Origin: Salinispira sp.
GTDB lineage: Bacteria; Spirochaetota; Spirochaetia; DSM-27196; Salinispiraceae
Direction of reading: 5' to 3'
DNA length: 64,000 nt
Assembly (NCBI GenBank): GCA_965226555.1
Contig: CBDDDG010000001.1
Coordinates: 88,248-152,247, forward strand
This document shows, piece by piece, positions 8,323 through 27,158 of the stretch. The notes below the pieces were generated by a model. The model had not been told where the DNA came from. It searched no databases and saw nothing but the letters and a program-made list of their open reading frames with translations. The position numbers and the translations under genes were made by a program. Position 1 is the first letter of the stretch. Every line of letters starts with the position of its first letter.

Positions 8323-11300
8323 TCAGAGCGGAGCGTCCGCGGATGTTCCAGCCGCAATCGTTTTCCGGTATTCTATAGCAAAGTTTTGCATTGATATCCG
8401 CCTAAGCTGCGGGCATTCGCCGGAGAGGGCGTTCAGGGCTTCGGGGTCGGCAAGCACCGTCCGGTGAGCGCCCGGAAGGGCGCGGACAAGTCGTTCGGCA
8501 GCCTGCTGAATGTCGGTTCCGGTGCTTTCAATGAGCCAGCGGCGGCGCTGGCGGCGCAGATCATCGCTTATGCCGCAGGAGAAGCGCCGAAAACTGAGGT
8601 CTCCCTTTTCCGCAGGGGAAAGGGGGTGGAGTTCCCTCCCCGCGAGATAAATTTTTGCGAGATCAAGATCCGCTTGGTTAAGAGGAGCGGATGCGAGTAT
8701 GTTCAGGCTATCGGCACAGGCAGCCCAGCTCCGGCTGATCGCAGGATCACGGTAGGTAGCAAAGCTGAATGTAGCATTGAGGGGATCTGAGTTGCAGAAT
8801 GCGCCGTAGGCGCCGCCTTCCGCGCGGATTTTATCGTGGAAAATTCCGGTGCGCAGAATGTGGCTGAGAATTTGTTCGTGAACCTGTTCCCGTTCGTTCA
8901 TACCAGATGCGGGGATGGCGAGGGCAGTAAAATTGACCTTGGAGGTATATTCTATGCCTTCGGCGCCCTCCTTTGTAGGGGTATCTGTTCTGCGCTGCAT
9001 GTGGTTGTGGTCCTGAATGAGCAGGGGCCGGGTAATGTCCGACAGCGGAGTGAGAGATTTCTGAAAAGGCGCATCGTTAACATTCCCGGTAGTCTTTCTG
9101 TCAGCCCTTCTATCAGTTTTTTTGGCAGTTTTCAGCGCATTCAGGAACTTTGCGAGCTGCGTCCGCAGGCGCGGAGCCTGTTGTTCTTCGCAGACAATAC
9201 TGAGATTAAGCGATTCAGGGCTCCATATCATGCGCATGAGGGCAGAAAGCGCAGCGGGAGAGAGAAAAATATTCCCATTTTTGCGCGCGCCGCCGCCTTC
9301 ATCAGCATTCTCTTTCAGGGAATGAGCATACTGGTGAAGAGTTTCAATAAAGCGGGACTGAATAACCCCCCACCACAGGTCATCACTGAAAGCCGAAGAG
9401 GAAAATCCGCGCCGCGCCCGTATGTCGGCGTAGTTGCTGCCGTGGGGTATTATGTCTGCGCGGAAATCGTTACGATATTCCCGGTATATCTCCCGAATAT
9501 AATGCTGATCGGAAAAATCGGCAGATACCAGAATTTCCTGCAACAGAGCGAGCCCATCTCCGCTCATATCATCCAGAGTTTTGAGGCGGATGCAGATAAA
9601 TTGCCGCTGCCCGGCGCGGTCTGAGCGTCCGGTACTCAGGCCGGTTTGTCCGGTACTCAGGCCGGTCTGCCCTGCGGCGCGCCCGGTGCTGCTAAGGTCT
9701 GTGTGGTGAACAGGACTGAGTGAGAAGCCGCCCGTTTTCAGTCCCCATTCGGTGGACATGTGAGAATACGATTTTGTTTTTGTACCGAGCTGCGGGAGGA
9801 GGTGGGCGAGGAAGGGAATAAATATCTGCAATTCTTTTTCCATGTCTGTGATGTCGAAATACACATTAATGTAGCTTACGCTGTTGGTAAAGATTTTATG
9901 GATATGAAGCGGGCATCCCTGTACATCGCCTTCCTCTCGGGGAATGGTTCGGATATCCCGCGGAATGTCATCCACCGTAAGAACAGGAAATTGTGCGATA
10001 TCTTCAGGCCGGTCTTCCTGCTGCTGGAACTTCTGAAACATTTCGCTTGTCTGCCTGAGAATATCAGGAGCATGAGCGCCGAGCGATTGAACCTTACGGG
10101 ATACGAGCTCGCGTTCAGCCTGTTCCTCGCGGGCGCTCAGTTGGGGGTCGGGACTGACCGTGAGGCGGCTGCGGTGCGGATTGCTCAGGATAGCGCGGAT
10201 TAATTCTCTGAAAAAATCCTGATCGCCGATGTTTTTCAGGTTTTCAAGATGCGCGGTGAACTGCATGGCCAGTCCTGGTGTTTCGCCATGCAGCCAGCGT
10301 TTGAGGGTTCGTAAGAGAAGACGGAGCCCAAAGGGCGCGCCGCCCTTTATTTCCCTGTTATGAAATTCAAAACGCAGAAATGAGGCCCGAATGAGATCGG
10401 GATCAAGCCCTTCGCTAACTACCCGCTCCAGCCCTGAAATAATGAGCTTTTCCACTGCTGCAGCATGTTCTGCCTGTGTTCCCCGAATTCCAATGGTGAA
10501 GACGGGTTGGCGGAAATCGCTTTCAAAACCGGTACTATCGCTCATGTCCTCCCCGAGTTCCGATTCAAGAATGAGTTTCTGAATGGGGCTGGCGGGAGTT
10601 CCGAAGAGGATGTCGCTCAGGAGCTCCATTTTAATGATGTCGGCTCCGCTTTTTGGCTCAGGAATGAGCCAGTTGATATCCACAGACGTTCCATCGTTCT
10701 TTTCTTTGTCTGCCGGATATTTCACTTCGAAGGTCCGGGGATTGTCCCAGCTCTGCTGGAGCGGAACAGTTGCGCTGCTGCGCTTTTTCAGTTCATCTTC
10801 ACTGAATCGTGAAAAAATACATTCATCGAGGAAGGTGAGGTAATCTTCACTTGCTATGTTGCCGTAAAGAAAAATTCGGCAATTTGAGGGATGATAATAT
10901 CTGCGGTGAAAGGCGCAAAATTCCTCATAGCTCAGATCAGGAATGTCAGCAGGATCACCGCCCGAATCGTAGGCGTAGGGGGTATCGGGAAGGATACTCC
11001 GATATGTCCAGTCGCGGGCTATCGATTCCTGGGTTGAATATTGAGCCTTCATCTCATTGTAGACAATACCCGCAATGCGGGCGCCGGCGCTGTCGGCATC
11101 GGTACTGTCGGCATCGGTACTGTGAGCGGCGGCGCTGCCGGCGCTGGCATCCATTTCAAGACGATGCCCCTCCTGGAGAAAATGTTCCTTACGGAGCAGG
11201 GGAAAAAAGACCGCATCGGCATAGATCGACATGAGATTAAACAGATCCTTCCGAACAGGAGAAGCCGCCGGATAGATGGTTTTATCAGGAAAGGTCATCG

Positions 11301-11643
11301 CATTCAGAAAGGTCTGCATACTTCCCTTGTAGAGCATGAAAAAGGGGTCGCGAATCGGATACCGTTCGGAGCCGCATAAGACCGTATGTTCGAGAATGTG
11401 GGCAACGCCGGTGGAATTTGCGGGCAGGGTGGTGAAATTGAAACTGAAGAGGTTTTCATCATCCGTGTTATCAACATGGTATATTTCTGCGCCGCTCAAT
11501 TCTTCAACGAAAAGAATACCACGGCTTTTATACTCGTCTAAATTGTCAACTGATTTTACCCGAAAACGTCCAATTATCTGGCCGGGAGAAAATGCGCTGC
11601 TGCCGCTGCCGTTATTGGCGCCGCGGGAAGGAATATGTTTCAT
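8323..11643 (-). CDS. Peptidase M16 family (PreP/insulinase-like, M16C) zinc protease
   Basis: 1106 aa. Inverted zinc motif HILEH followed by TVLCGSERYP. Two short in-frame tandem repeats: GQTGLST x2 at 9628-9669 and STDAD x2 at 11091-11120. Confidence 0.85.
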   Translation of the reverse strand: MKHIPSRGANNGSGSSAFSPGQIIGRFRVKSVDNLDEYKSRGILFVEELSGAEIYHVDNTDDENLFSFNFTTLPANSTGVAHILEHTVLCGSERYPIRDPFFMLYKGSMQTFLNAMTFPDKTIYPAASPVRKDLFNLMSIYADAVFFPLLRKEHFLQEGHRLEMDASAGSAAAHSTDADSTDADSAGARIAGIVYNEMKAQYSTQESIARDWTYRSILPDTPYAYDSGGDPADIPDLSYEEFCAFHRRYYHPSNCRIFLYGNIASEDYLTFLDECIFSRFSEDELKKRSSATVPLQQSWDNPRTFEVKYPADKEKNDGTSVDINWLIPEPKSGADIIKMELLSDILFGTPASPIQKLILESELGEDMSDSTGFESDFRQPVFTIGIRGTQAEHAAAVEKLIISGLERVVSEGLDPDLIRASFLRFEFHNREIKGGAPFGLRLLLRTLKRWLHGETPGLAMQFTAHLENLKNIGDQDFFRELIRAILSNPHRSRLTVSPDPQLSAREEQAERELVSRKVQSLGAHAPDILRQTSEMFQKFQQQEDRPEDIAQFPVLTVDDIPRDIRTIPREEGDVQGCPLHIHKIFTNSVSYINVYFDITDMEKELQIFIPFLAHLLPQLGTKTKSYSHMSTEWGLKTGGFSLSPVHHTDLSSTGRAAGQTGLSTGQTGLSTGRSDRAGQRQFICIRLKTLDDMSGDGLALLQEILVSADFSDQHYIREIYREYRNDFRADIIPHGSNYADIRARRGFSSSAFSDDLWWGVIQSRFIETLHQYAHSLKENADEGGGARKNGNIFLSPAALSALMRMIWSPESLNLSIVCEEQQAPRLRTQLAKFLNALKTAKKTDRRADRKTTGNVNDAPFQKSLTPLSDITRPLLIQDHNHMQRRTDTPTKEGAEGIEYTSKVNFTALAIPASGMNEREQVHEQILSHILRTGIFHDKIRAEGGAYGAFCNSDPLNATFSFATYRDPAISRSWAACADSLNILASAPLNQADLDLAKIYLAGRELHPLSPAEKGDLSFRRFSCGISDDLRRQRRRWLIESTGTDIQQAAERLVRALPGAHRTVLADPEALNALSGECPQLRRISMQNFAIEYRKTIAAGTSADAPL

Positions 11644-11650
11644 AATGTGT

Positions 11651-12325
11651 TCACCATTCTGAATCTGTCATAAGAGTCAGTTTGTTTTTTGCCCGCTGAT
11701 CGTCCGGATTAATTTTCAGAACTTTGCGGAAGGCCTTTATGGCATCAATGTTTCTATGAAGTCCGTAGTAGGCTTGTCCGAGCATGTAGTGCGCTTCGCT
11801 GAGGTTAGGGGTTTCCTCAAGAAGTTCTTCAAGAAGGATGACAGCATCGGAGAATTCATTCTGTTTGAGTTTGAGTTGGGCAAGGAAGAAGTTTGCTATG
11901 AGAGATTCAGGCGCGTTATTGCGGAAGGCGCTGAAGGCCTGTTGTGAATCATCTTCCTTACCAAGAAAAAAATTGATGAGACCGACAAAGTAGGCTGCCA
12001 TGGCATGTCCGTCCTTTTGCATGACCCTGTTAAAGGCTTCCAGCGATTTCACCAGCTCCCCTCTCCGAAAATACGTGACCCCCAGTTTGTAATAGGCCAG
12101 ACCCCAATGAGGTTCACACTGCAACGCTTTAAGATACCACTCGATGCTCTGTTTGAGTTTTCCTGTTGAATAATAAATGTTTCCAATTGTCAAAGGTATA
12201 AAGCTGCTTTTCGGATACTTTTTGAGCAGTGTAAGAAATGATTTCTCGGCTGCATCCCAGTTGCCGAGCATGAAATCGCTCATGGCTTCAATGTATTCCG
12301 GATCGGATTGATTCAGTGCCTTCAT
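11651..12325 (-). CDS. Tetratricopeptide repeat protein
   Basis: 224 aa with repeated TPR-like W/Y-x-A-x-Y helices (AEKSFLTLLKKYP, SIEWYLKALQCEP, AYYKLGVTYFRRG, AHYMLGQAYYGL). Confidence 0.7.
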   Translation of the reverse strand: MKALNQSDPEYIEAMSDFMLGNWDAAEKSFLTLLKKYPKSSFIPLTIGNIYYSTGKLKQSIEWYLKALQCEPHWGLAYYKLGVTYFRRGELVKSLEAFNRVMQKDGHAMAAYFVGLINFFLGKEDDSQQAFSAFRNNAPESLIANFFLAQLKLKQNEFSDAVILLEELLEETPNLSEAHYMLGQAYYGLHRNIDAIKAFRKVLKINPDDQRAKNKLTLMTDSEW

Positions 12326-13701
12326 ATCATGCTCCTCGGGTCAAGAATTGAATTGAGTTCATCTTCACTGATAATTTTCTCTTCAAGAACAAGATCGCGA
12401 ATTTTTTTCTTCTCCCTGTATGCCCGGTAGGCCAGCGTACTCGCCCGATCATAGCCGATTTTCACAGCCAGCGGAGTAACCATGGCGAGGCTCCAGTCTA
12501 TCCAGTAACGGCAGCGTTCGCTGTCGGCCGCGGCGCCGCGAATGGCCTTGTCGGCCAGTGTGTTGCAGGCCTTTGTGAGTATGGTAATGGAGCTCAGCAC
12601 TTCATAGGCTATGAGGGGGTTCATCATGTTCAGTTCGAGAGGCGCGTTCTGTCCTCCCATGGTAACGGAAATGACCTTACCGTGAACATGGGCAGCAACC
12701 TGAATGATCATTTCCGGAATAACAGGGTTCACCTTCCCGGGCATAATGGAGCTGCCGGGCTGAAGGCTGGGAAGAAGAATTTCACCGAGGGCGCCGCGGG
12801 GACCGCTGGCAAGAAGGCGCAGATCGTTGGCAATTTTCATAAGCGATGTTGCAAGAACATTCACTGCCCCCATAAATGCTACCTGAGCGTCTCGGGCGGC
12901 AATGCCTTCAAACTTGTTAGCGGCAGGAACAAAGCCTATGCCGGTATCGGCGGCAATGCCGGAAATTGCGCGGTCGGCAAAGTCCGGGTGAGTGTTCAGA
13001 CCCGTACCAATTGCCGTACCGCCGAGGGGAAGTTCTTCCATGTCAGCAAAGCTGTTGCGGATGCGCGCCGCGGCCTTTTGAATTTGCAGGGCGTACACAG
13101 CAAATTCCTGACCGAGGGACATGGGTACGGCGTCCTGAAGGTGGGTTCGCCCGAGTTTGAGTACCTCGGAAAATTCATCGGCCTTTGCCGTGAAGGCATC
13201 GGCGAGGTTGGTAAGTGAGGCGAGCAGGCCATCCGCTTCAACGCGGTTGGAAATGTGCAGGGCTGCGGGGATAACGTCGTTTGAGCTTTGTCCGCGGTTG
13301 ACGTGATCATTCGGATGTACGGGTTTCCGCATGCCGATGGGTTCGCCGAGAATTTCATTTGCGCGGTTGGCGATGACTTCGTTCGCGTTCATATTGCTGC
13401 TGGTGCCGCTGCCGGTCTGAAACACATCAACCGGAAAATGGTCATTCCATTTTCCCTCATACACCTCTGTTGCGGCCTGTATAATGGCCTCCGCACGTTC
13501 CGGCTCCAGAAGTCCGAGCTCCCGGTTCGCAGCGGCGGCATTCTTCTTAATGAGGGCGATTGCCTGAATCATTGCCGACGGCAGGACAATGCCCGATATC
13601 CTGAAATTCTCTACAGCCCGCTGTGTCTGCGCGCCCCAATAGGCCCATGCGGGAATTTCAATATCTCCCATGCTGTCTGACTCAATTCTTTTTTCATTCA
13701 T
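12322..13701 (-). CDS. fumC: Class II fumarate hydratase
   Basis: 459 aa. Lyase-1 signature GSSIMPGKVNP, plus HPNDHVNRGQSSND and WGAQTQRAVENF. The Gly in the signature favours FumC over AspA. Confidence 0.85.
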   Translation of the reverse strand: MNEKRIESDSMGDIEIPAWAYWGAQTQRAVENFRISGIVLPSAMIQAIALIKKNAAAANRELGLLEPERAEAIIQAATEVYEGKWNDHFPVDVFQTGSGTSSNMNANEVIANRANEILGEPIGMRKPVHPNDHVNRGQSSNDVIPAALHISNRVEADGLLASLTNLADAFTAKADEFSEVLKLGRTHLQDAVPMSLGQEFAVYALQIQKAAARIRNSFADMEELPLGGTAIGTGLNTHPDFADRAISGIAADTGIGFVPAANKFEGIAARDAQVAFMGAVNVLATSLMKIANDLRLLASGPRGALGEILLPSLQPGSSIMPGKVNPVIPEMIIQVAAHVHGKVISVTMGGQNAPLELNMMNPLIAYEVLSSITILTKACNTLADKAIRGAAADSERCRYWIDWSLAMVTPLAVKIGYDRASTLAYRAYREKKKIRDLVLEEKIISEDELNSILDPRSMI

Positions 13702-14616
13702 AAAAATTTTTGCTCCTGAAAGTTTCCGCTATATGGCAAGCATTTCATATAGTTCTCCATAAATTCCCAATTCGGGTTGCCATCCTCATTATAAGGATAT
13801 TTGCCTTCTCCGTACTCCTTTATTTCCTTCTTTGTAAAACTCTTTGAACCTTTTATTTCAAATAGATCTTTCAAACTAAAATACTGCCACTTATGAAGTG
13901 GAATAATGGGTGAGCCATGCCTTCTTAATGCTGTCCCATTTATTATCATAATTTGCCCTGCCTCCCACTTTCATATTATAAAAACCATCATTTTTCCAGT
14001 AGGCAAAATATGACTTGTACCCTTCTCTGTGTGGTTCCTTGGCTTTCATAACAATTACACACGTTGTTGTACCTGCCTTTCATTAAATTACTTCTCCCAT
14101 CGCCATGAATGTACATATTGGAGCATAGGAGCGAATAAATATCGTGTTGGAATTCAACACCTACTATTTGACTTTGTTTAATGTGCCTTTCTTTTTCTTC
14201 ATTGCCACCAGCATCTCTAATCATGTTTTTCATGGCAGATATTAAGAATCCACCGGTACCCGTGCAGGTATCTAAAACCACAGAAGCCTTGTTCACATAG
14301 GCTATTTCAGAAAATAATTCTGTTATATGGGGAGGAGTCAAAACTATGCCCAAACCTTTGTCGTTATTGGCACATCGTAAAAATTCTATATAAAACTGCC
14401 CGAGGGCATCGAAGTACTTATATTGTTATCATCGCCGCTAACAGCAATGGCAAGAACATCGTATTCTTTAGACAAAAAAGAGGCATAGAGCAAAACCCCA
14501 TCGACAGCATAACTCCCATATTGTTTTCTATTCTGGCTTTCGTGTTGAGTTACACTGGCCTTACATTCAACAACAATGATTACATGTACATTTTCCGTTA
14601 TTCTCTCGTTAGCCAT
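13698..14616 (-). pseudogene. Decayed N6-adenine DNA methyltransferase / R-M subunit (nuclease-like N-domain, SAM domain, specificity-domain remnants) split into three frames
   Basis: ORFs 14386-14616 (VIIVVECK, ExK-type HsdR_N-like), 13988-14353 (TPPHITELF...DTCTGTGGFL motif I, no intact NPPY/F motif) and 13698-13949 (WQYFSLKDLFEIKGS, TRD-like start fused to a conserved end). They are collinear but lie in different frames. Confidence 0.6.
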
Positions 14617-14648
14617 TTATCTCCCTCTGCGCTGAATGGTCCACAAGA

Positions 14649-14726
14649 GAAACTTTTGCAAAGCACAATTTTCAGTAGCAAAACTTTCCAAGAGTATAAC
14701 AGAAACCTTCATTAATGCAAAAGTTT
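14649..14726. repeat. Degenerate copy of the AAACTTTTGC/GCACAATTT palindromic repeat family, 3-prime flank of the SIR2 operon
   Basis: GAGAAACTTTTGCAAAGCACAATTTTCAGTAGCAAAACTTTCC ... AATGCAAAAGTTTTT shares arms with the elements at 18407, 20353, 45694, 49342 and 49905. Confidence 0.6.
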
Positions 14727-15872
14727 TTATCTGAATTTTATTGATGATAAAAACGATGCAGCCGATTCTAATCCTTTCCAGAAAAAGTCATTCTCATTAA
14801 TATTGTGGAAAATAGTAGAAAAGTTCTTCATTAATTGACGCCTGTGATCTTTTTCCTTCTCTTTTTGGATGATTTTAACAGCTGGAGGATTATTTCTCAA
14901 TGATACAGCGCGCAGAAAAATATCGCGAATATCAATATCGGAAACGGGGAGCGAATAGCCAATAAAGGTAATTTTATGAGCATTTTGAATTGCATGGAGT
15001 ACCTCCGTTTGTATCGATTGAAAACTCCCAATAAATTTATGCTTATGAAAAGTTGGCGTTACAATAATCGGCTGCAATGCAACACTGCGCTTCGATAAAA
15101 TTTGTCGATCCTCATCGGATTCAAAAAGAATTGGAATTTCTGTAGATTGCTGAGTATTCTGCCCTGTCGATTCTTGCAAAATTTCTTCTGATTTTTTATC
15201 TGAAAAACAATAGATGCACGTTTCATATTCTAGGGATTGAGAATCTACTCTGAATAAACGCTCGCATGCCGGACACAATCGCCAATCGATGGAGCCATGA
15301 GGCTTGAGTACTGTTATTGGTTTTTGATTCGAATCGGTATCTGTTCCATTTTTCATTACTATTGGGATGGTATCTCCAAAATGAATATCATACTCATAAT
15401 CTTGCTTGAGAAGCATTTCCAATAGCCAATCCCAATTCATGCTAATAAAGGTTACCTGTACATTTTCTTGAATAATCTGACTCATTAATGAATGAAACGG
15501 GCTCGGATCAATATCATGGCTCATCTGTTCTGTTAAGAGAATGAGAATGAGTGAATTTAAAGACGTTTTAATTTCTAATAATTTTTGCGGAGTATAAGTT
15601 CCTAAATTTCTTTCTGCTGCAATTGCTGAATCAATACTGCTATAGACATCTTCCAATAATATCTGCTCCTCAATAGTTTGATTACCGTAAACTGCTCGCA
15701 AAAATTTCACAACATCATGTACTAAAGGAGCAGATTCAATGCTTACGCGTTCACGAAAATCATCTGCCAGAATTTTAGTAAGCAATTGTTCCTGAAGAGG
15801 AAATCCCATCGCGCGGGAGAATCCGGCACCGATAATTACCGTGTGTGTTTTTGCTGGATGAGTTTTATCCAA
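14727..15872 (-). CDS. SIR2-family (SIR2_2-like) protein, predicted NAD-consuming effector
   Basis: 381 aa with a TTG start. Landmarks: VIIGAGFSRAMGFP, FISMNWDWLLE (TTNYD-like, Asn position), VLKPHGSIDW (catalytic His position), CPAC-x19-CIYC zinc ribbon, ITFIGYSLPVSDIDI. Overlaps the upstream gene by 37 nt. Confidence 0.8.
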   Translation of the reverse strand: MDKTHPAKTHTVIIGAGFSRAMGFPLQEQLLTKILADDFRERVSIESAPLVHDVVKFLRAVYGNQTIEEQILLEDVYSSIDSAIAAERNLGTYTPQKLLEIKTSLNSLILILLTEQMSHDIDPSPFHSLMSQIIQENVQVTFISMNWDWLLEMLLKQDYEYDIHFGDTIPIVMKNGTDTDSNQKPITVLKPHGSIDWRLCPACERLFRVDSQSLEYETCIYCFSDKKSEEILQESTGQNTQQSTEIPILFESDEDRQILSKRSVALQPIIVTPTFHKHKFIGSFQSIQTEVLHAIQNAHKITFIGYSLPVSDIDIRDIFLRAVSLRNNPPAVKIIQKEKEKDHRRQLMKNFSTIFHNINENDFFWKGLESAASFLSSIKFR

Positions 15873-17197
15873 ATTTTTAGGTGCTCCGTAGATGTATATT
15901 CAGATTTTTTATTCCATTCAATGAAATCATGCAGGTTTTTCATATTGATCTTATCCTCTACAATCTCAGAAATTTTATTCAACACAAAATGCACTTGATT
16001 ATTCCACAATGTTTCAGATGTCGGCATGAGCTTTTCAGTATTGGGGATTGCTTTTCTCGCCCCATAATGTTCGGCAAAAACTGTTTGAGTAAATTTCCCT
16101 GGGGACAATATTTCATGGCATTTCAAGCAGCCGCACACTTTCTTAGTATAGGCTGAATCAAATTCCTTTCTCATTTGCAGAATTGCATCGACAATTTCAA
16201 ACCTCATTCGCTGTTGCGCGTACGGCAAATAAAATTTGGCAGTCGGTAGTCCTCCTCCAACCGGCAATACGCTGCGATATTCTCCATAACCCGGCCCATG
16301 AGCAATACCATTCAGTCGTTTTTCTTTTTTCAAAAGCGTAGAAAACCCGCCTCCATATAAATTAATGACTTTTTTACCTTTATAGTTAAAATGTATGAGC
16401 AATTCCCGATACGCTTGCAGGTATTTTTCATTTTGAGAAGTCTCGTCAAAATTATTAATCCACAACAGCAATGTGGAAATTTTTGATGTGGAATACACGT
16501 CCTTAATCTGCTTCATTTTATCTGGGTCTAATAAAACACTCTTTTCTACAATTATCTCCAAAGCAGTCTCTATATCGTCATTTCTTGGATTTTTGTCATA
16601 CTCTTGAATAATCGTTTTGTTTATTTTTAACGCTTTGTCAAAATCTGCAAGAGTCATGTATAAGCAGGGCAGTATTATAAATGTTGGTTTAGGAGAAATA
16701 TCGGATTCTTCTTCGTAATCAGAATAACCTTTTTTTTCCATTGCTTCTTGGGACAGGCTGTTTTGAATATAATGTGTTTGAAATTCCAGAACATTTTTCG
16801 TGAGGTCACTAATATTGGCTGCTATATCGGAGAATTGGAGGGCTTGCTTGGTTTTGATAATTTGTTGGCCTAAGCGACCAAAACGCTGCAGTAATTTCTC
16901 CATAGATTTCTTTAGAGTCATACTATCTGTGTTCGCGTAGTACTTCAGTGGGTCTATGGTGAGAACATACGTCATAGGATCAATAAAAAATGAACAGTTT
17001 CCGAATGTTATTGTGAGCATTTTGGCAATTGCCGCCGGCGTATGTACGGCAACATTGCCGTTTATTACGATTCCAGTTTTTTTCTGGGAAATATATTGTT
17101 TTATTAAAGGTTCCAAGAGAATTTTTTTCTCGTTGTGAGAACCGAATCGGATAAACTGTTCAGTTTTCATTATGCTGCCTGCATAATTTAATATCAT
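15836..17197 (-). CDS. Hypothetical protein with a TGT/DpdA-like motif layout (CxCxxC)
   Basis: 453 aa, or 444 aa from the alternative ATG at 17170. Ordered motifs FFIDPMTY, VINLYGGGFSTLL, NGIAHGPGYGEYR, CGCLKC, NNQVHFVLNKI. Overlaps both neighbours. Confidence 0.55.
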   Translation of the reverse strand: MILNYAGSIMKTEQFIRFGSHNEKKILLEPLIKQYISQKKTGIVINGNVAVHTPAAIAKMLTITFGNCSFFIDPMTYVLTIDPLKYYANTDSMTLKKSMEKLLQRFGRLGQQIIKTKQALQFSDIAANISDLTKNVLEFQTHYIQNSLSQEAMEKKGYSDYEEESDISPKPTFIILPCLYMTLADFDKALKINKTIIQEYDKNPRNDDIETALEIIVEKSVLLDPDKMKQIKDVYSTSKISTLLLWINNFDETSQNEKYLQAYRELLIHFNYKGKKVINLYGGGFSTLLKKEKRLNGIAHGPGYGEYRSVLPVGGGLPTAKFYLPYAQQRMRFEIVDAILQMRKEFDSAYTKKVCGCLKCHEILSPGKFTQTVFAEHYGARKAIPNTEKLMPTSETLWNNQVHFVLNKISEIVEDKINMKNLHDFIEWNKKSEYTSTEHLKIWIKLIQQKHTR

Positions 17198-17600
17198 CGA
17201 ATATTTCTAAAAAATTCTTTCTTAAAAATTCATTATGCATTCTTGATTTTTTGTCGACAATCTTTTCTATTTCTTTCTTATCTTGATCCCAAATATAAAA
17301 TGAGAGATCAAATTTGTTTATTTTTTCTTCAATTGTTGTTGTATTGCGCGGGACAGTTGCCTTCGGCATAATGAGAATTGCCTTGTCGACAACACAGCTG
17401 TGATCCTTCAATTGTTCAATAGCTCTCTTCCAATTCTTTAGTTTTACTTCAATAGAAATTAAGGAATTGTCCTTTTGCAAAAATATGTCTACAATACGCG
17501 ACATGAGGGGAATTTCCCTATAAACCTTGTACGTTTTTCCGTCCAACGGTTCATGGGTAAAATACCTAAGCAATTCCGTTTGAACTTTTGCCTCCGTCAC
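17160..17600 (-). CDS. Small PD-(D/E)xK (restriction-endonuclease-fold) protein
   Basis: IVDIFLQKDNSLISIEVKLKNWKRAIEQLKDH is a D...ExK...Q pattern. A GTG at 17600 overlaps the upstream TGA (GTGA), giving 146 aa. The 203-aa ORF-track version (start 17771) would overlap the upstream gene by 175 nt. Confidence 0.55.
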   Translation of the reverse strand: MTEAKVQTELLRYFTHEPLDGKTYKVYREIPLMSRIVDIFLQKDNSLISIEVKLKNWKRAIEQLKDHSCVVDKAILIMPKATVPRNTTTIEEKINKFDLSFYIWDQDKKEIEKIVDKKSRMHNEFLRKNFLEIFDDIKLCRQHNEN

Positions 17601-18217
17601 AACGTATATTCTCCCAATACTTGGTTTTTTATTAATGAATTTTTCGTAGAATCGGGATATCGCGTGTAAACATAGTGCAGAATTGTCTGTAAGGTTTTGT
17701 GTATAATGCTTGTTTTGAATCGTACGAGAATTTCCCGTTGGGGTTCGGTTAAATTTGTCCATGAAAACCATTTCTGAGGCGAGGTAATAACTTTCTTTCC
17801 TTCTCCGCTAAGCGTATATTTTTCAATTTCATGCGTATAATCATTAATCCCTAAATTATCATTTTCAAAACCCCTCATATTCGATTCCCAGACATCATCG
17901 GCTCTACCTATTTGAGAATAAGAAATGCTTATAGTAAGCATATGTTTCGCGTTTAAAAAATCCACTGCTTCCAACACGTCTGTGCTGAATGGTCCAAAAT
18001 TATAGGCTTCAAAATCAAAAGAAGAAATATTGTCAGACGGATTCAGGAATTTCTGCTGTACTTCCTGCTCAAAAAGGTACATCATCTTCATTAATCGCGT
18101 TCTGCCAGTAATTGGATATGCGATATTTTGATCCAGATCGCCGTATAAGGTGAGATGCACCGGCGCATAAAGCAGCAGGTGTAAAATATGAACGCATTTA
18201 TAATTTTTCTTCGGCAT
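17597..18217 (-). CDS. SocA/Panacea (DUF4065)-like protein, first gene of the SIR2 operon
   Basis: 206 aa. GRTRLMKMMYLFEQE...FDFEAYNFGPFSTDVLEAVDFL matches my recollection of the DUF4065 core (KLQKLLY...W.YGP). The C-terminal YTLSGEGKK looks wHTH-like. Confidence 0.5.
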   Translation of the reverse strand: MPKKNYKCVHILHLLLYAPVHLTLYGDLDQNIAYPITGRTRLMKMMYLFEQEVQQKFLNPSDNISSFDFEAYNFGPFSTDVLEAVDFLNAKHMLTISISYSQIGRADDVWESNMRGFENDNLGINDYTHEIEKYTLSGEGKKVITSPQKWFSWTNLTEPQREILVRFKTSIIHKTLQTILHYVYTRYPDSTKNSLIKNQVLGEYTL

Positions 18218-18223
18218 GACAAG

Positions 18224-18251
18224 AGTATATCAGAAACCTTTATTTATGCAA
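18224..18251 (-). promoter_or_regulatory. Sigma70-like promoter of the SIR2 operon (near-leaderless)
   Basis: Minus strand reads TTGCAT (18251-18246), a 16-nt spacer, TATACT (18229-18224), then 6 nt (CTTGTC) to the ATG at 18217. No Shine-Dalgarno sequence is present. Confidence 0.4.
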
Positions 18252-18406
18252 ACCTTTTTGATACAGTCTTCTACCCACATAGCATTCACCCCGCATTCAA
18301 GAGCAATCCGACCTTACCATATTGTATTCATCATTAACAATGATAGCACTGGGACGATATCGCCATACATGCCTTTTCTTTTGTTTTCCAAATGTATATA
18401 CTGCGA

Positions 18407-18475
18407 TAAAACTTTGCTACTGAAAACTTTGTTACTGGAAATTGTGCAAGCACAATTTTCCAATGCAAACGTTTC
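18407..18475. repeat. Palindromic repeat-family copy, 5-prime flank of the SIR2 operon
   Basis: GATAAAACTTTGCTACTGAAAACTTTGTTACTGGAAATTGTGCAAGCACAATTTTCCAATGCAAACGTTTC. Confidence 0.7.
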
Positions 18476-18499
18476 TATTACAAAGAATAGGAGATATAT

Positions 18500-19492
18500 A
18501 TGGAATATCGTAATCTTGGAAGATCGGGACTGAAGGTTTCGGCGCTTTCCTTCGGATCGTGGGTGACATTTTCATCGACAGTTGATGTTGATGCTGCGGT
18601 CGATATGATGAAAGCCGCCTTCGACGCCGGTGTGAATTTCTTTGATAACGCCGAGGCCTACGCGCAGGGAGAATCGGAAACTATTATGGGCAAGGCCCTG
18701 AAGAAAATTGGATGGAACCGCAGTGAATACACGGCATCCACCAAAATATTCTGGGGCGGTTCAGGCCCGAATCAGAGCGGTCTCTCGCGCAAGCACATTC
18801 TGGAAGGTACGGCAGCGGCGCTTACGCGTCTTCAGCTGGACTATGTGGATATGGTGTTTTGTCATCGTCCCGATTATGAAACCCCCATTGAAGAAACGGT
18901 TCGGGCAATGACCTATCTTGTGAACCAGGGCTATGCTCTGTATTGGGGAACCAGCGAATGGAGCGCATATCAGCTTCGCGCAGCATACGACATTGCCGAA
19001 CAGGAACACCTCATTCCGCCTGTTATGGAGCAGCCCGAATACAATATGTTCTTCCGTGAGCGTTTTGAAGTTGAATATGCTCCCCTGTACAGCGATTTTG
19101 GACTTGGTACGACAATTTGGAGTCCGCTCTCTTCCGGAGTTCTCACCGGTAAATACGGAAAGGGAATTTCCGATGGACGTCTCACCATGGAAGGATACGA
19201 ATGGCTCAGGGAACGCTGGGAATCGGATGATGGACGCAGAAAAATTGAAACAGTGGAAAAGCTCCGTCCGATAGCCGGTGACATCGGCGCAACGCTTGCC
19301 CAGCTTGCCATTGCCTGGACCCTCAGAAACCCGCATGTGAGTACCTGTATTACCGGTGCCAGCAGGATATCGCAGCTCCATGAAAACCTCAAAGCCATGG
19401 ATATTCTTCCCAAGCTCACCGATGATGTTATGGAAGAAATAGAAAAGGTTCTGAATAACAAGCCCGAATTTCCCCGTAACTGGAGGGGCTAG
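18500..19492 (+). CDS. Aldo/keto reductase (Kv-beta-like AKR)
   Basis: 330 aa. MEYRNLGRSGLKVSALSFGSW, DNAEAYAQGESE, VFCHRPD. RBS GGAG upstream. Confidence 0.85.
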   Translation: MEYRNLGRSGLKVSALSFGSWVTFSSTVDVDAAVDMMKAAFDAGVNFFDNAEAYAQGESETIMGKALKKIGWNRSEYTASTKIFWGGSGPNQSGLSRKHILEGTAAALTRLQLDYVDMVFCHRPDYETPIEETVRAMTYLVNQGYALYWGTSEWSAYQLRAAYDIAEQEHLIPPVMEQPEYNMFFRERFEVEYAPLYSDFGLGTTIWSPLSSGVLTGKYGKGISDGRLTMEGYEWLRERWESDDGRRKIETVEKLRPIAGDIGATLAQLAIAWTLRNPHVSTCITGASRISQLHENLKAMDILPKLTDDVMEEIEKVLNNKPEFPRNWRG

Positions 19493-20352: not shown

Positions 20353-20407
20353 ACAAAGTTTTGCTACTGGAAATTGTGCACGCACAATTTTCCAATGCAA
20401 AAGTTTC
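20353..20407. repeat. Single-hairpin copy of the palindromic repeat family between two co-oriented genes
   Basis: ACAAAGTTTTGCTACTGGAAATTGTGCACGCACAATTTTCCAATGCAAAAGTTTC, immediately followed by the RBS AAGGAGG. Confidence 0.75.
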
Positions 20408-20688: not shown

Positions 20689-21045
20689 ATGCTGAGTTTA
20701 ATTATCGCTGAAGCAATAGTTTTTGTTTCAACAGTACTAATAGTGATTGCGGCCTACACAAGAGCTGGCAAAATGAATGATGAGCATTTACGAGGACTTG
20801 CCCTCCCGAGGGGAAGTGTTCGAGCCATTTTCACATTATGGCTGGTTGGGTCATTTGCGGTTTTCACGTTATTTGGCGAGGAAGCAATGTCGAGTGTTGA
20901 GGCATATCAGCAGGGGTTATCTGCCCTCTCTGGAGTTACCGGATCGGTATTAGGTTTCTACTTTGGCGGACGCAGCGCAACCCCGCTCCCCGAGTCTGAA
21001 AAGAACCCCGCATCGAAAGCAGAACAGAATTCCATATCAACGTGA
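20689..21045 (+). CDS. Small membrane protein (about 3 TM helices)
   Basis: 118 aa with hydrophobic segments IIAEAIVFVSTVLIVIAAY, AIFTLWLVGSFAVFTLF and LSGVTGSVLGFYFG. Starts 4 nt after the previous stop. Confidence 0.5.
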   Translation: MLSLIIAEAIVFVSTVLIVIAAYTRAGKMNDEHLRGLALPRGSVRAIFTLWLVGSFAVFTLFGEEAMSSVEAYQQGLSALSGVTGSVLGFYFGGRSATPLPESEKNPASKAEQNSIST

Positions 21046-21114
21046 TCGTGAGGTCATCGAAAGGGCATCGCGAACTATGGGAGCCCTCTCTTTTTGGGTG
21101 CGAAACGCTGGCTA

Positions 21115-22374
21115 ATGATACAGACAATTTTTAAGTATGGCATGAGTGAATTTTTTGCGAAGGGCCTGAATGTTATACTCCTATCGCTCGTATTACCCGC
21201 GCTGCTCGACATTGAAAGTTACGGACAGGTCGCTATCATTATTGCGATTGAAATGATTTTTCTTGTATTACTGACCTGTAATCAAAACACCGTAATGCTC
21301 CGCTTATATAGTTCTTTCAAAGGAAAACTATTCCATCTCTATAGTGTTTCATTTGGAATTGTTCTAATAATGGCTGCTGTTTTACTCATTTTGTACGTTG
21401 CGTTGTTTGCAACAAATATATTGAACTTTGAGAATATTAAAAATTATACAATTCTCTTTATTATTATTGCGGCTGCATTACAAGGACAATTTGCGTTATA
21501 TCTTGCCTATCTTCGAAAGGAAAACAGGGTCGACGAGTACGGCATTAGTCGAATATGTTATCAGATAGTTAAATTCTGTATAGTTGCGGGAGGAGCTGTA
21601 ATACTCAGAGATGTCACAGCGTACCCCCTCGGCATTTTGGTATCGAATATTGTCGTATTTGTGTTTATCGGAGTTAGAAATCGGCATCGTTTTACAACTT
21701 TCAGAGTACATTTTTCAGAAATTTTCACTAATGTGAAATCGGTTTTTAAAGACAATATGCATATTGCGCTTCCTCTGACCATAAGTTCGCTTATTACATC
21801 AATGTATACCTTTATTGATCGATTCATACTTCAGTATTTTCTCACTATGCAACAGGTAGGAGTCTATAATTTTGCGCTTACCTTAGGAAATACGATCTAT
21901 TTTTTTGTTTACGTTCTCAGCCTATCCTATGTTCCGGTTATATATGAAAACAAGGAGTATGATCATCATACCGCTAAGCTCTTACGTACATTTCTTATTG
22001 TCGCAATGCTTACTTCCCTGGGCGCAGTCGTTGTAATATATTTTTTCATATTTCCATTTACGCTGCAATTTGTTCCATCGGACTATGAGGATGGGCGGGT
22101 AGTTCTCCTTCTTGCATCCGGTGCAATGGTTATTAATACACTAACCTTGTATGGCACCTATACCTTGATCAGCCTGCGGAAAGTGATACTAATACCCATT
22201 CTTACACTTGGCGCATTAATTATTAAAGTAATTCTGAACTATTTTTTTATTCCATTGTATGGAATTAATGGTTCAGGTATGGCAGTCATTCTCAGTGAAT
22301 TTTTGCATGGGCTTTCGTTTATAATTGTCGCTCGGGTACTTGTAAACAGAAATCGAAGCAAGATCAGTTTGTAG
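21115..22374 (+). CDS. Polysaccharide biosynthesis protein / Wzx-type flippase
   Basis: About 12 predicted TM segments and 419 aa from ATG 21115 (the ORF track uses TTG 21094). First gene of the AT-rich glycan block. Confidence 0.65.
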   Translation: MIQTIFKYGMSEFFAKGLNVILLSLVLPALLDIESYGQVAIIIAIEMIFLVLLTCNQNTVMLRLYSSFKGKLFHLYSVSFGIVLIMAAVLLILYVALFATNILNFENIKNYTILFIIIAAALQGQFALYLAYLRKENRVDEYGISRICYQIVKFCIVAGGAVILRDVTAYPLGILVSNIVVFVFIGVRNRHRFTTFRVHFSEIFTNVKSVFKDNMHIALPLTISSLITSMYTFIDRFILQYFLTMQQVGVYNFALTLGNTIYFFVYVLSLSYVPVIYENKEYDHHTAKLLRTFLIVAMLTSLGAVVVIYFFIFPFTLQFVPSDYEDGRVVLLLASGAMVINTLTLYGTYTLISLRKVILIPILTLGALIIKVILNYFFIPLYGINGSGMAVILSEFLHGLSFIIVARVLVNRNRSKISL

Positions 22375-22489
22375 TGTGTAATGAAATGAGAAACGATGAA
22401 TTATTTTCTGGTTGAATTCGCCCGCTTGTAAAAAAAATTATGGACAAGTATAATAGAATTATGCAAAAATTTCTACAAGGAGAATCATT

Positions 22490-23365
22490 GTGGTAAAAGT
22501 TGTCGGTGAAATTGGGTGCAATCATCAAGGAAAAATGGACATTGCAAAAGAGCTCATTAAAATAGCGGCTGTTTTTTGCAAATGTGACTACGTTAAGTTC
22601 CAGAAGAGATCAAATAAGGAACTTCTAACTGTAGAAGAGTACAATGCTCCCCACCCTGTTCCGAAGAACTCTTATGGAAGAACCTATGGTGAGCACAGAG
22701 AATTTCTTGAATTCAACTTAGATCAACATAAAAAACTCCAACATTTGTGTAATGAATTTAATATCGGATACTCGACATCTGTATGGGATATGACTTCAGC
22801 CCGAGAAATGTCTACCCTCAATTGCGATTTTATCAAAATACCTTCTGCCTGTAATTTAGACTATACAACCCAAAAATATCTCATTGAAAATTTCCATGGT
22901 GACATTCACGTTTCCACAGGAATGACCACAAAAAACGAAATTGAAGCGATTGTTCGTTTTTATGAAGAAAACAATGCCGCCCATCGACTTGTTTTATATG
23001 TATGCACTTCAGGATACCCTGTGAGTTTTGAAGATGTTTGTTTGTTGGAAATTACTCGCTTTAAAAAACTTTACGCCGCGAGGGTTAAGGAAATTGCCTT
23101 CTCAGGGCATCATCTTGGAATTGCTGCGGATATAGCCGCAGTCACTTTGGGAGCTGCCTGGATAGAAAGACACTACACGCTTGACAGGGCATGGAAAGGA
23201 ACTGACCACGCGGCATCCTTAGAACCCGATGGTTTAAGAAAACTCACAAGAGACATAAAAGCTGTCGAAAAGACCCTTACCTACAAGAATAAAGATATTC
23301 TGGACATCGAAAATGTCCAGCGAAGAAAACTCAAAAGAACCCGGGAGAATTTTGCCCATGCTTAA
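22490..23365 (+). CDS. neuB: N-acylneuraminate(-9-phosphate)/nonulosonate synthase family protein lacking the C-terminal SAF domain
   Basis: GEIGCNHQGKMDIAKELI, VKFQKR, IKIPSACN, TGMTT, FSGHHLG. Only 291 aa, versus about 340-350 aa for NeuB with an SAF domain (from memory). Confidence 0.75.
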   Translation: MVKVVGEIGCNHQGKMDIAKELIKIAAVFCKCDYVKFQKRSNKELLTVEEYNAPHPVPKNSYGRTYGEHREFLEFNLDQHKKLQHLCNEFNIGYSTSVWDMTSAREMSTLNCDFIKIPSACNLDYTTQKYLIENFHGDIHVSTGMTTKNEIEAIVRFYEENNAAHRLVLYVCTSGYPVSFEDVCLLEITRFKKLYAARVKEIAFSGHHLGIAADIAAVTLGAAWIERHYTLDRAWKGTDHAASLEPDGLRKLTRDIKAVEKTLTYKNKDILDIENVQRRKLKRTRENFAHA

Positions 23366-24530
23366 AAAAATCGTAGCTCTCATTCCACTTAGGGGGGGAT
23401 CAAAAAGCATTCCTCACAAAAATATCAAAGTAATAGCTGGGAGACCCCTCTTTTTCTGGACAACGCGAGCCGCTGTTGAATCTAACGTTTTTTCTGATGT
23501 TTATATATCCACAGATTCAAACGAAATTACGGAATGTGTTCGCAAATATTTTAATGAAACAGAAGTTACCGTGCTAAAGAGAGCCGATTATTTGGCAACC
23601 GATGAAGCCTCGACAGAAGCCGTTATGCTCAATTTTGCCAGCAAATACGATTTTACTGATATATGTCTTATACAGGCAACATCTCCCATCACAAGTGTTC
23701 AGGATATAAAAAACGCCTTCCTGTTATATACGCAAAACAAATTCGACTCCCTTTTTACAGCCGTACAATTTAAACGATTTTTATGGGGGTATGATTCCAA
23801 CCCCATTACCTATGATTTTCGCAACCGCCCGCGAAGACAGGAATTTAAAGGCTGTCTTATGGAAAACGGATCGTTTTATTTTACCCGGCGCGAAATTTTG
23901 TTGAACGAGAAAAACCGTCTCGGAGGGAAAATTGGCTATTATGTTATGGCTGAAGAAACAGCCGTTGAAATAGATGAACCGAGCGATTGGGATATTGTTG
24001 CTCGCCTCATCCAAAAAAACTCTCTTCTCTATTTTAAACGTTCCCTAGAACACATTAGGGCCATAATTTTCGATGTTGATGGAACCATGACCGATGCGGG
24101 AATGTATTATGGCGAAACCGGTGAAACTCTCAAAAAATTTAACACACGCGATGCTGAGGGAATCGCTTGTTTAAGAGAACAGGGAATAAAAATAGGTGTT
24201 ATTACGGGAGAGAACAGCCCTTCAGTCACCTCAAGAATGAATAAACTACAAATTGAATGCTATGAGAAGGACGTTTCTAACAAATTGCCAGTATTCAATA
24301 AAATGATACAGAAATGGGGATTGTTGCCTTCTCAGGTTGGCTATATGGGCGATGACATTAGTGACAAATTATGCATGGAAGCTGCGGGTTATAGTTTCTG
24401 CCCCCAAGATGCCGTTGAGAATGTAAAACATCTTGCGGGCTTTGTCTGCGCTGAAAAATCGGGAGAAGGGGCGGTAAGAGAAGTGGCCAATGTAATACTA
24501 AAAAACATATCGCCTGCCCAATTGTCATAA
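23358..24530 (+). CDS. neuA: Fusion protein: CMP-nonulosonate synthetase (cytidylyltransferase) + HAD-type (KDO8P/Neu-9-P-like) phosphatase
   Basis: N-terminal half has ALIPLRGGSKSIPHKNIK. C-terminal half has IFDVDGTMTD (DxDGT), ITGENS and MGDDISD. ATG 23358 overlaps the neuB stop (ATGCTTAA). Confidence 0.75.
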   Translation: MLKKIVALIPLRGGSKSIPHKNIKVIAGRPLFFWTTRAAVESNVFSDVYISTDSNEITECVRKYFNETEVTVLKRADYLATDEASTEAVMLNFASKYDFTDICLIQATSPITSVQDIKNAFLLYTQNKFDSLFTAVQFKRFLWGYDSNPITYDFRNRPRRQEFKGCLMENGSFYFTRREILLNEKNRLGGKIGYYVMAEETAVEIDEPSDWDIVARLIQKNSLLYFKRSLEHIRAIIFDVDGTMTDAGMYYGETGETLKKFNTRDAEGIACLREQGIKIGVITGENSPSVTSRMNKLQIECYEKDVSNKLPVFNKMIQKWGLLPSQVGYMGDDISDKLCMEAAGYSFCPQDAVENVKHLAGFVCAEKSGEGAVREVANVILKNISPAQLS

Positions 24531-24531
24531 C

Positions 24532-25788
24532 ATGAAAAAAATTATCTATTTCGATTCCTGGACACTGGGAATTCAGAATTATTGTTCCATTGACAGACTA
24601 CTGCGAAACGACTGTCAGACTCTCCTTCTCCATGTAGAAAGTCTGGTAGTTCCCTATTTCGCTTCTCATGTTGACACCTCCTGGTATAGAGCTGAAAAAG
24701 AACAAAGAATCTCCGGTATCCATTGTAAGGATATTTCCGCGTACAACGGAATGACAATTGCGGACATTCTGAAAACAGAAGCCCCCAATGTTGTTGTGCA
24801 GCTAAATGTGTCGCATCTTCAGAACCGAATGGTAACAGCAGCCTGCAAGCGTCTGGGTATAAAGGTAGTGTTTATGATGCACGGCGCAATCCGCAACCTG
24901 AATGAGGCCGAGTCGCTTGCTACCAGCCTGACAGAATCGCATAAACATAATATTTCGCTTAAAGTCAAAAAAATCCGTAAATATATCAGGCTTCTGCGTG
25001 AATACCACGCGGCTTCAGGGAAAATCAGCGATACCCTAAACATTGCCCGACAAGTATTTTCTTCACCGTTTAAATTCACATGGAATCCAGAGCCTCATTT
25101 TTCATTAAATGTCGACAAATCTTTCGTCTATACAATTGCAGACATTCATTCTCTGTCGGAAGTATTTGGCATTCCATTAAAAAATAGTATGGCTGTCGGG
25201 AATCCAAAACTGGATCCGATATTGTCTGAACCGCATCAGAAAACACAACGGCAGTCTGATAAACTGAGGCTTTTATATATTGAAGGATCGGTCAATGATC
25301 TGAAGATGATGGATGATTCACAGCAAATGAATATTCTTTCATTTCTGAACGAAGCGGCAAAGCGAAACAAACTTGAATTTGTTATTAGACTCCACCCCGG
25401 TACAAACCGAAAGAATTTCATTCAGAAATTTGGTTCCGAGTATCAGTATTCGCCAGCAGATGAATCGTTGAAAAACTCCCTCCTTAATGCAACAATAATT
25501 ACCGGGCATCACTCAACAGCAATGCTGGAAAGTATTGCCTACCGCATACCGACCATTTCCCTGTTGTGGTTTGGAGGGGCACTCCAGCGCATTGTTGTTA
25601 ATGAACATGATGTGGGAATTGTCAGACAAAAGAGCTCATTTGAAGAAAAACTGCGGGAGTTTCTTAAAAACGGCTGGATGCAGGAAGAAACCCGCAAAAC
25701 ATTATTTCCCCGGGGTGACATACCCGCGGCAGAAAATATTGTTGCGGAAATTAGGAAATTGGCAGACACAGAATCTGCCGTATTATGA
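24532..25788 (+). CDS. Hypothetical protein, possible sialyl/nonulosonyl-transferase
   Basis: 418 aa. YIEGS and IRLHPGT resemble the D/E-D/E-G and HP motifs described for bacterial sialyltransferases. Sits immediately after neuB-neuA. Confidence 0.35.
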   Translation: MKKIIYFDSWTLGIQNYCSIDRLLRNDCQTLLLHVESLVVPYFASHVDTSWYRAEKEQRISGIHCKDISAYNGMTIADILKTEAPNVVVQLNVSHLQNRMVTAACKRLGIKVVFMMHGAIRNLNEAESLATSLTESHKHNISLKVKKIRKYIRLLREYHAASGKISDTLNIARQVFSSPFKFTWNPEPHFSLNVDKSFVYTIADIHSLSEVFGIPLKNSMAVGNPKLDPILSEPHQKTQRQSDKLRLLYIEGSVNDLKMMDDSQQMNILSFLNEAAKRNKLEFVIRLHPGTNRKNFIQKFGSEYQYSPADESLKNSLLNATIITGHHSTAMLESIAYRIPTISLLWFGGALQRIVVNEHDVGIVRQKSSFEEKLREFLKNGWMQEETRKTLFPRGDIPAAENIVAEIRKLADTESAVL

Positions 25789-25888
25789 AAAAATTAATTC
25801 TGGCCTATGGTTTCAGCGAAGGTATAGCGAAAAGCTTGAACATGCGGATAATGGCGCGCGGAACGCAGAGCATTCCAAAGGAATAAGT

Positions 25889-27127: not shown

Positions 27128-27158
27128 AAGTACTGTTATCTGTACAGGAGGCAAGAAG

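Follow-up and report, generated by a model that had tools for sequence, protein, structure and literature searches.

A mobile four-gene cassette from Salinispira sp. with Panacea-like, PD-(D/E)xK-fold and TGT-fold proteins and an exchangeable effector: a candidate bacterial conflict system

What could be the role of an operon in which four genes overlap at every junction and the last one encodes a SIR2-family protein, if none of its partners belongs to a named SIR2 defence system? This question was raised by positions 14727-18251 of a 64-kb stretch of DNA from Salinispira sp. (contig CBDDDG010000001.1, positions 88,248 to 152,247 of the forward strand), which we refer to as a whole as the window. 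An initial annotation, made from the sequence alone, had suggested an undescribed defence or conflict system with a SIR2 effector. We found that the operon was one copy of a small horizontally mobile cassette whose defining core consisted of three genes, encoding a predicted Panacea-like protein (A), a small PD-(D/E)xK-fold protein (B) and a protein with the fold of tRNA-guanine transglycosylase (TGT; C). The SIR2 protein (D) was only one of two effectors that could be plugged into this core. That the operon belonged to a conflict system in which the toxic effector can be swapped was likely, and we assigned a probability of roughly 0.6 to the more specific reading that the cassette was a mobile conflict system resembling toxin-antitoxin (TA) modules and acting, most probably, against phages by abortive infection.

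All four reading frames that had been proposed on the minus strand were present, together with the promoter-like sequence ahead of them:

18217-17597, minus strand: gene A, 206 aa, ATG start
17600-17160, minus strand: gene B, 146 aa, GTG start, GTGA overlap with the stop of A
17170-15836, minus strand: gene C, 444 aa (453 aa if the start was at 17197)
15872-14727, minus strand: gene D, 381 aa, TTG start, 37-nt overlap with C
18224..18252, minus strand: putative sigma-70-like promoter, TTGCAT-16 nt-TATACT, with its 3' end 6 nt upstream of the ATG of A and without a Shine-Dalgarno sequence

The start of C at 17170, which gave an 11-nt overlap with B, was favoured by the alignment of homologues and by the database entry P0001, and orthologue alignments likewise backed GTG as the start codon of B and TTG as that of D. 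Compared with their orthologues, all four open reading frames (ORFs) were intact and full-length. One putative promoter stood ahead of the four overlapping genes. Its sequence and position were as initially described, and a consensus scan read the predicted site as TTTGCA-17-TATACT with a TG extension. Since the putative promoter ended 6 nt before the ATG of A, the mRNA covering A-D was probably leaderless or nearly leaderless. As a class, promoter-like sites were not enriched in this region (19 versus 17.5 expected in the consensus scan).

Evidence that the four genes belonged together came from other genomes. We read 26 related loci (labelled L001-L027) that represented about 18 independent lineages; a genome scan with an alignment of eight C sequences returned seven loci. 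The order of the cassette was kept at 24-41% identity across distant phyla, and the lineages included Spirochaetota, Aminicenantes, Bacillota, Terriglobia, Hyphomicrobiales, Anaerolineales, Planctomycetales and Pseudomonas. Because the same gene order recurred in at least 18 independent lineages, the set was more than a chance arrangement, and the conserved co-occurrence of A-D that the initial annotation had suggested looking for was indeed found across phyla. Two architectures could be distinguished:

Type 1, A-B-C-D with SIR2: the window, L001-3, L005/6, L008, L013, L015 and L027
Type 2, A-X-B-C without SIR2: L007, L010 (Hyphomicrobiales), L011 (Anaerolineales), L012 (Pseudomonas cuatrocienegasensis), L014 (Planctomycetales), L016-18 (P. 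aeruginosa, more than 100 contigs), L022/23, L024 and L025/26

The X proteins of type 2 were about 165-190 aa long and poorly conserved, with a charged central segment flanked by one hydrophobic helix on the N-terminal side and two on the C-terminal side. The two effectors were equally frequent in our sample, with SIR2 in nine lineages and the X protein with three transmembrane (TM) helices in another nine. In a neighbour-joining tree of C, calculated without support values, most SIR2 cassettes formed one clade, and the SIR2 cassettes L013 and L015 were nested among type 2. The nested position of these two therefore indicated that the effector had been exchanged more than once. Thus, the defining core of the cassette was A+B+C. 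The SIR2 protein was an exchangeable component and not the defining one, a point that the initial annotation had not recognised.

Protein A was most probably a stand-alone Panacea/DUF4065 (SocA-like) protein, for which we propose the role of an antitoxin or regulator of the effector. The motif RLMKMMYLFEQ...FEAYNFGPFSTDV, on which this family had first been suggested, was present. The Pfam model SocA_Panacea (PF13274) matched A with an E-value of 1.2e-3 and 8 of the 11 A orthologues with E-values of 0.01 or lower, the top orthologue reaching 24.7 bits (gathering score 25.7). Moreover, the PADLOC model PDC-M19A matched A at 2.7e-7 and its orthologues down to 5.8e-16, and the P. aeruginosa orthologue was named a SocA-domain antitoxin at NCBI. 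The A proteins shared 24-42% identity across the related loci. A separate observation was that A orthologues from Pseudomonas matched the C-terminal end (positions 431-548) of the PADLOC model PDLC03184 (Specificity_I) at 4.8e-9 and 2.1e-10, and some proteins annotated as HsdS may carry a fused Panacea-like domain.

For protein B, both the predicted structure and the conserved residues pointed to the restriction-endonuclease fold that the initial annotation had suspected. Its D38, E51, K53 and Q63 were invariant in alignments of 12 and 28 sequences, and the AlphaFold2 model had a pLDDT of 92.9. All Foldseek matches at a probability of 0.9 or higher were PD-(D/E)xK-fold proteins, mostly known nucleases; these were SfsA, the XisH-like structure 2okf (TM-scores 0.52/0.58), AF2093, Bax1 and Can2, and the matches to Hjc and BglII had lower probabilities. 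Profile comparison also listed Hjc (E 0.12) and NucS (E 0.58), and there was no match of B in the family libraries. The model displayed the core alpha-beta-beta-beta-alpha-beta fold together with the catalytic D...(D/E)xK motif, and B can accordingly be described as a predicted small PD-(D/E)xK-fold protein with an intact catalytic motif. The sequence IVDIF...SIEVKLKNWKRAIEQL was found as reported, but its spacer had to be corrected from 11 to 8 residues between IVDIF and SIEVK; Asp38 and Glu51 were 13 positions apart.

A distant relative of B was observed in another setting. In a biogas metagenome (L020, 3998-6438), the B-like PD-(D/E)xK protein P0184 followed a Ser/Thr kinase, which resembled PD-T4-6 of PADLOC (6e-31), and a 403-aa unannotated protein. 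This trio was part of an element that also encoded three integrases, and genes for a KAP NTPase and a methyltransferase were located nearby; the trio may represent another system that uses the small nuclease module of B. The 403-aa protein was considered as a remote relative of C and rejected (hhalign probability 0.9%).

Neither protein C nor 63 of its diverse relatives had any match in Pfam (including TGT), NCBIfam or PADLOC, and the family members were unnamed or called hypothetical protein in every source listed. A glycosyltransferase match (E about 0.2) was rejected as a chance hit. The AlphaFold2 model of C (pLDDT 80.3, pTM 0.84) gave a clearer picture, since the top 50 Foldseek matches in the PDB were all TGT or QTRT1 structures, with probabilities of 0.97-1.00 (1.00 for 48 of the 50). 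The best of them, 7ovs_C, was found at an E-value of 1.2e-4 with borderline TM-scores of 0.48/0.54. A Foldseek search of a viral structure library gave no match below 1e-3.

The conserved residues of C were consistent with this fold. D64, P65, W237, E297, Y314, C346, C351, H394 and W434 were invariant in the 63 family sequences. The CGCLKC sequence that had been noticed in C was present and formed part of a CxCxxC...H site in which C346, C351 and H394 were invariant and C348 was kept in at least 90% of the sequences. In an hhalign comparison this motif was placed on C302/C304/C307 of E. coli Tgt, which we take as a weak pointer given a probability of 1.2%. The same very low-confidence alignment put a Lys, Arg or Gln at position 312 of C opposite the Tgt nucleophile D264. 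It was made with the single E. coli Tgt sequence; a phmmer search of Tgt against the PDB gave alignments of the E. coli and Z. mobilis proteins only. The invariant D64 was located within IDPxT..FQ, whose likeness to the TDSGGFQ motif with the base-binding Asp (D89 in E. coli) was judged by eye only. A glycine-rich loop, HGPGYGExRxVxPVGGG, was also conserved, and it was poorly ordered in the model. The family was large: a hidden Markov model (HMM) scan of 1.84 billion representatives yielded 895 clusters (50% identity) at E-values of 1e-3 or lower and 412 at 1e-30 or lower, nearly all with lengths of 430-470 aa, whereas a word-indexed search had given just nine relatives. Together, the structural matches and the conserved zinc site support the TGT-like assignment, and we consider C as a predicted zinc-binding TGT-fold TIM barrel, the signature protein of the cassette and the representative of an unannotated family.

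Protein D was a SIR2-family protein, predicted to act as an NADase effector and to contain an internal Cys4 zinc ribbon. It matched the Pfam model SIR2_2 at 6.2e-7, with 30.0 bits exceeding the curated threshold (gathering score 24.5), and the SIR2 models of PADLOC down to 3.5e-13. The motifs IIGAGFS, MNWDWLLE, KPHGSIDW, CPAC...CIYC and FIGYSLPVSD were all found as initially listed. Moreover, GAGFS, N146 (NWD), H192 (KPHGS) and C200/C203/C219/C222 were invariant in seven D orthologues, and the D profile matched KomC (8zsf, 6.7e-8) and a SIR2-like defence NADase (8w9l, 1.5e-7) with the Asn (NxD) and His (HG) motifs aligned (NYD and HGD in KomC); these two were the nearest solved structures by profile. 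The Asn and His positions, the GAGFS loop and the Cys4 ribbon were therefore intact in the Salinispira protein.

The locus in the window was a small AT-rich islet between housekeeping genes. Its neighbours encoded a class II fumarate hydratase and an aldo/keto reductase, and it contained nothing but the four-gene operon and the decayed remnant of a type I restriction-modification (R-M) locus:

13698..18500: AT-rich islet, 4.8 kb, GC content 0.33-0.40 versus 0.50-0.56 in the flanks (composition profile)
13698-14616: decayed type I R-M locus, four short ORFs
13988-14353: N6_Mtase fragment of the R-M remnant
13698-13949: Methylase_S fragment of the R-M remnant
18220-18259: 40-nt direct repeat, copy 1, carrying the putative TTGCAT-N16-TATACT promoter
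14689-14728: 40-nt direct repeat, copy 2, 88% identical to copy 1
14661-14682, 18448-18469, 20360-20401, 45703-45745, 49351-49393 and 49914-49955: REP-like palindromes, usually intergenic back-to-back inverted pairs

The AT-rich composition, the decayed R-M neighbour and the palindromic repeats on both flanks had each been noted before, and all of them could be substantiated. The 40-nt repeat occurred in only two copies in the 64 kb (none expected) with the cassette between them; the second copy immediately followed D and preceded the R-M remnant. This pair may have arisen by duplication of the promoter or may be a scar of recombination or insertion. The REP-like palindrome GCACAATTTyC...GCAAA, a genome-wide repeat, had 10 matches in the window versus 0.04 expected, including both flanks of the cassette. 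The last R-M fragment and the fumarate hydratase gene overlapped at the stop of the former and the start of the latter. Rfam gave no family match and no RNA gene anywhere in the window. Another AT-rich stretch, at 21-27 kb, was considered as an extension of a defence island and rejected: at 21000-27200 the GC content was about 0.37-0.39 (measured at 21000-23000), and this segment overlapped the start of a polysaccharide/nonulosonic-acid cluster that extended to about 27.1 kb (Polysacc_synt, NeuB, a CMP-sugar cytidylyltransferase-HAD protein and a Wzy-like protein).

Mobility was evident in P. aeruginosa. In CP128275.1 (L016, 1-10756), the cassette was located at the end of an element with AlpA, Toprim and DUF927-primase genes, beside Hcp-VgrG genes of a type VI secretion system. 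In the other P. aeruginosa loci (L017/L018), it occupied a different site, with an aldehyde dehydrogenase gene on one side and unrelated genes on the other. These different insertion sites indicated that the cassette was mobile within the species, and the cassette as a whole behaves as a small horizontally mobile islet. Several of the remaining loci were adjacent to mobile or defence genes: an IS21 element (L005), a large helicase with an MZB/DUF1998 protein (L007), a Fic protein (L012), a prophage terminase (L015) and an NB-ARC NTPase (L024). In L025/L026, a conserved 197-aa soluble protein and two DUF488 genes were found downstream of the type 2 cassette (8455-12728), as well as a further Panacea gene (217 aa), which together with its 232-aa partner resembled a classical PanAT pair. 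In L001, a SIR2 protein (467 aa) and a HerA/DUF87 protein (at least 722 aa) were encoded at 13800-17323 together with a serine recombinase, less than 4 kb from the type 1 cassette. This islet thus held two SIR2-based systems, the SIR2-HerA pair being a separate neighbour.

How might such a cassette work? In the mechanism that we propose, A-B-C-D would be co-transcribed from one promoter and translationally coupled, as the gene overlaps suggest. In an uninfected cell, A may bind and neutralise the effector in the manner of the PanA antitoxins of its family. Judging from the folds, C would, together with B, bind or process nucleic acid (phage DNA or tRNA) through its TGT barrel and zinc subdomain. 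This event would free or activate the effector, so that SIR2 would deplete NAD+ or X would depolarise the membrane, and growth would be arrested before phage release. A bolder variant is that the C family forms a new, catalytically active branch of transglycosylases, which would act on a base of phage DNA or tRNA by exchange, excision or conjugation and, with B, signal the release of the Panacea-restrained effector. In this variant, D64, E297 and the HGPGYGExRxVxPVGGG loop would build the active site, with a basic residue at the position of the TGT nucleophile. We regard it as a tentative and rather doubtful possibility.

A number of observations weigh against the proposed conflict system or parts of it. 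Ordinary metabolic or housekeeping genes flanked about two thirds of the sampled loci, so that an enrichment in defence islands is at most tentative. The description of the Salinispira locus as a typical defence island was only partly true, since besides the R-M remnant the islet contained only this operon and most related loci were of the housekeeping-flanked kind. In type 1 loci, A and D were not adjacent, and the proposed link between A and the effector is tentative; A itself scored 20.2 bits with SocA_Panacea, below the gathering score. The C-family profile had no PDB chain at E-values up to 10, that is, no TGT match at the sequence level. The canonical Asp nucleophile of TGT may be replaced by Lys or Arg in C, and C may be a binding protein rather than an enzyme. 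Two loci also deviated from the common pattern and showed that components can be lost. In L004 (32-3026), on a contig that began just upstream of A, the B gene was missing and C and D came directly after A. B may be dispensable or this copy degenerate. In an Aminicenantes metagenome-assembled genome (L009, 4067-5908 of WVZO01000400.1), a 613-aa ORF fused C residues ~5-325 to D residues ~57-368; the internal deletion removed the zinc motif of C and the GAGFS loop of D, and the fusion was probably an inactivated copy.

The closest competitor of an abortive-infection system is a pure PanAT-type TA addiction module that stabilises mobile elements or islets, with A as the antitoxin, D or X as the toxin and B and C as accessory proteins. 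The Panacea domain of A, the adjacency of A and X in type 2, the location of the cassette on integrative elements and the ability of PanA to neutralise TM toxins built like X would all suit such a module. However, the toxin varied while B and C were better conserved, a pattern that is rarely seen in a simple TA pair but characterises sensor modules; PanAT operons are two or three genes long; and SIR2 effectors have so far, to our knowledge, come from defence systems. We therefore consider a pure addiction module unlikely, bearing in mind that TA activity and abortive infection are not mutually exclusive and that this explanation overlaps with the one that we prefer.

Two further explanations take the TGT fold of C as their starting point, and TGT-family proteins are known to act on both tRNA and DNA. 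If C were a DNA transglycosylase that modified host DNA and B restricted unmodified DNA, the cassette would be a modification-restriction system of the Dpd type. The fold and zinc site that C shares with DpdA (structure 7ui4), the intact PD-(D/E)xK motif of B and the R-M remnant adjoining the copy in the window speak for this idea. Yet no DpdB-type ATPase, QueC/D/E or FolE gene was found in the roughly 18 loci, the C profile matched neither DpdA nor any TGT by sequence, the TGT nucleophile position held Lys, Arg or Gln (with low confidence), and a Panacea protein with a SIR2 or membrane effector is foreign to the logic of R-M systems, all of which made this explanation quite unlikely. That the operon served housekeeping or niche tRNA modification, or was a non-functional remnant in decay, and had no role in conflict appeared highly improbable. 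It is true that the TGT fold is classically tRNA-modifying and that tRNA-modification genes were encountered nearby (MnmG in the window, MnmE and a MiaB-like gene in L010), but the patchy spread across phyla, the foreign GC content and the differing insertion sites in P. aeruginosa argue otherwise, as do the SIR2 or TM effectors, the Panacea protein and four ORFs that were intact and full-length compared with orthologues.

The preferred reading as a TA-like abortive-infection system also had to be compared with the systems already named. Pfam, NCBIfam and PADLOC profiles assigned the gene set to none of them, in agreement with the initial annotation, in which no named system could be assigned. 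PanA antitoxins have been shown experimentally to neutralise diverse toxins, including membrane disruptors composed of a coiled coil and TM helices (Kurata et al. 2022, PMC8832971). The cassette shares with PanAT the Panacea protein, a mobile and patchy distribution and, in X, a protein that resembles these membrane disruptors; it differs by adding the PD-(D/E)xK protein B and the TGT-fold protein C to what in PanAT are two or three genes. The survey of PanAT dropped operons of more than three genes, and this exclusion may explain why the present set was missed; the term SIR2 has no occurrence in the main text of that paper (PMC8832971). A and its orthologues also match component A of PDC-M19, a PADLOC candidate system. 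This match was limited to the Panacea-like N-terminal part of the 294-position model, B, C and X had no PADLOC match, and D was hit only by generic SIR2 models (PADLOC v2), so the identification of the cassette as PDC-M19 was rejected.

The comparison with SIR2 systems (Thoeris ThsA, SIR2-HerA, DSR1/DSR2, SIR2-pAgo/SPARSA and KomC of Kongming) gave a similar result. D has the G-loop, the Asn and the His of these proteins, and presumably the same NAD+ depletion. In contrast to them, the operon contains no TIR, HerA, pAgo or KomA/B component, and A, B and C matched no model of TIR (ThsB), HerA or short pAgo, which agreed with the absence of known partners reported initially. D is a chain of 381 aa and not of more than 1000 aa, carries an internal Cys4 ribbon, and belongs to a cassette in which related copies replace SIR2 with a membrane protein.

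With respect to C, the relevant systems are those in which a TIM barrel of the transglycosylase fold takes part in a multi-gene conflict system, namely Dpd with DpdA and type IV CBASS with Cap10. The TGT-like Cap10 acts in type IV CBASS on a nucleobase-tagged protein and has no zinc site (bioRxiv 10.1101/2025.04.06.647259). In contrast, C has a zinc site, and the operon lacks both a CD-NTase and the QueC-like Cap9. QatABCD likewise has a QueC-like protein, QatC, for which the cassette has no counterpart. The CxCxxC...H zinc subdomain, which in TGT and DpdA operates close to nucleic acid, is retained in C, although C was not detectable as a TGT by sequence and the canonical nucleophile Asp was probably not conserved. 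Unlike Dpd, neither the islet in the window nor the roughly 18 related loci contained DpdB or genes for 7-deazaguanine (preQ0) synthesis. The presence of a TGT fold without a QueC partner but with the zinc subdomain retained points to direct recognition of nucleic acid. Literature on combinations of TGT, SIR2, Panacea, SocA and PDC-M19 contained no description of this gene set, within a search that left many subscription-journal papers outside. As far as computational evidence reaches, the interpretation in the initial annotation is supported. The cassette is probably a modular TA/abortive-infection system in which a SIR2 or membrane effector is joined to a previously undescribed sensor core.

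If this is confirmed, an unannotated TGT-fold family of about 895 clusters would be the signature of a widespread defence or TA system. After Dpd and type IV CBASS/Qat, the cassette would be the third independent recruitment of queuosine-pathway folds into immunity, and it would widen the concept of Panacea antitoxins so that four-gene systems and a SIR2 toxin are covered. The exchange of SIR2 for a membrane protein is a natural experiment that separates the sensor from the effector, and the copies in P. aeruginosa, a species amenable to genetics and with many available phages, allow direct tests of the system. Should the less likely catalytic role of C prove true, the family would bring a previously unknown sensing chemistry to bacterial immunity, distributed over hundreds of lineages including P. 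aeruginosa.

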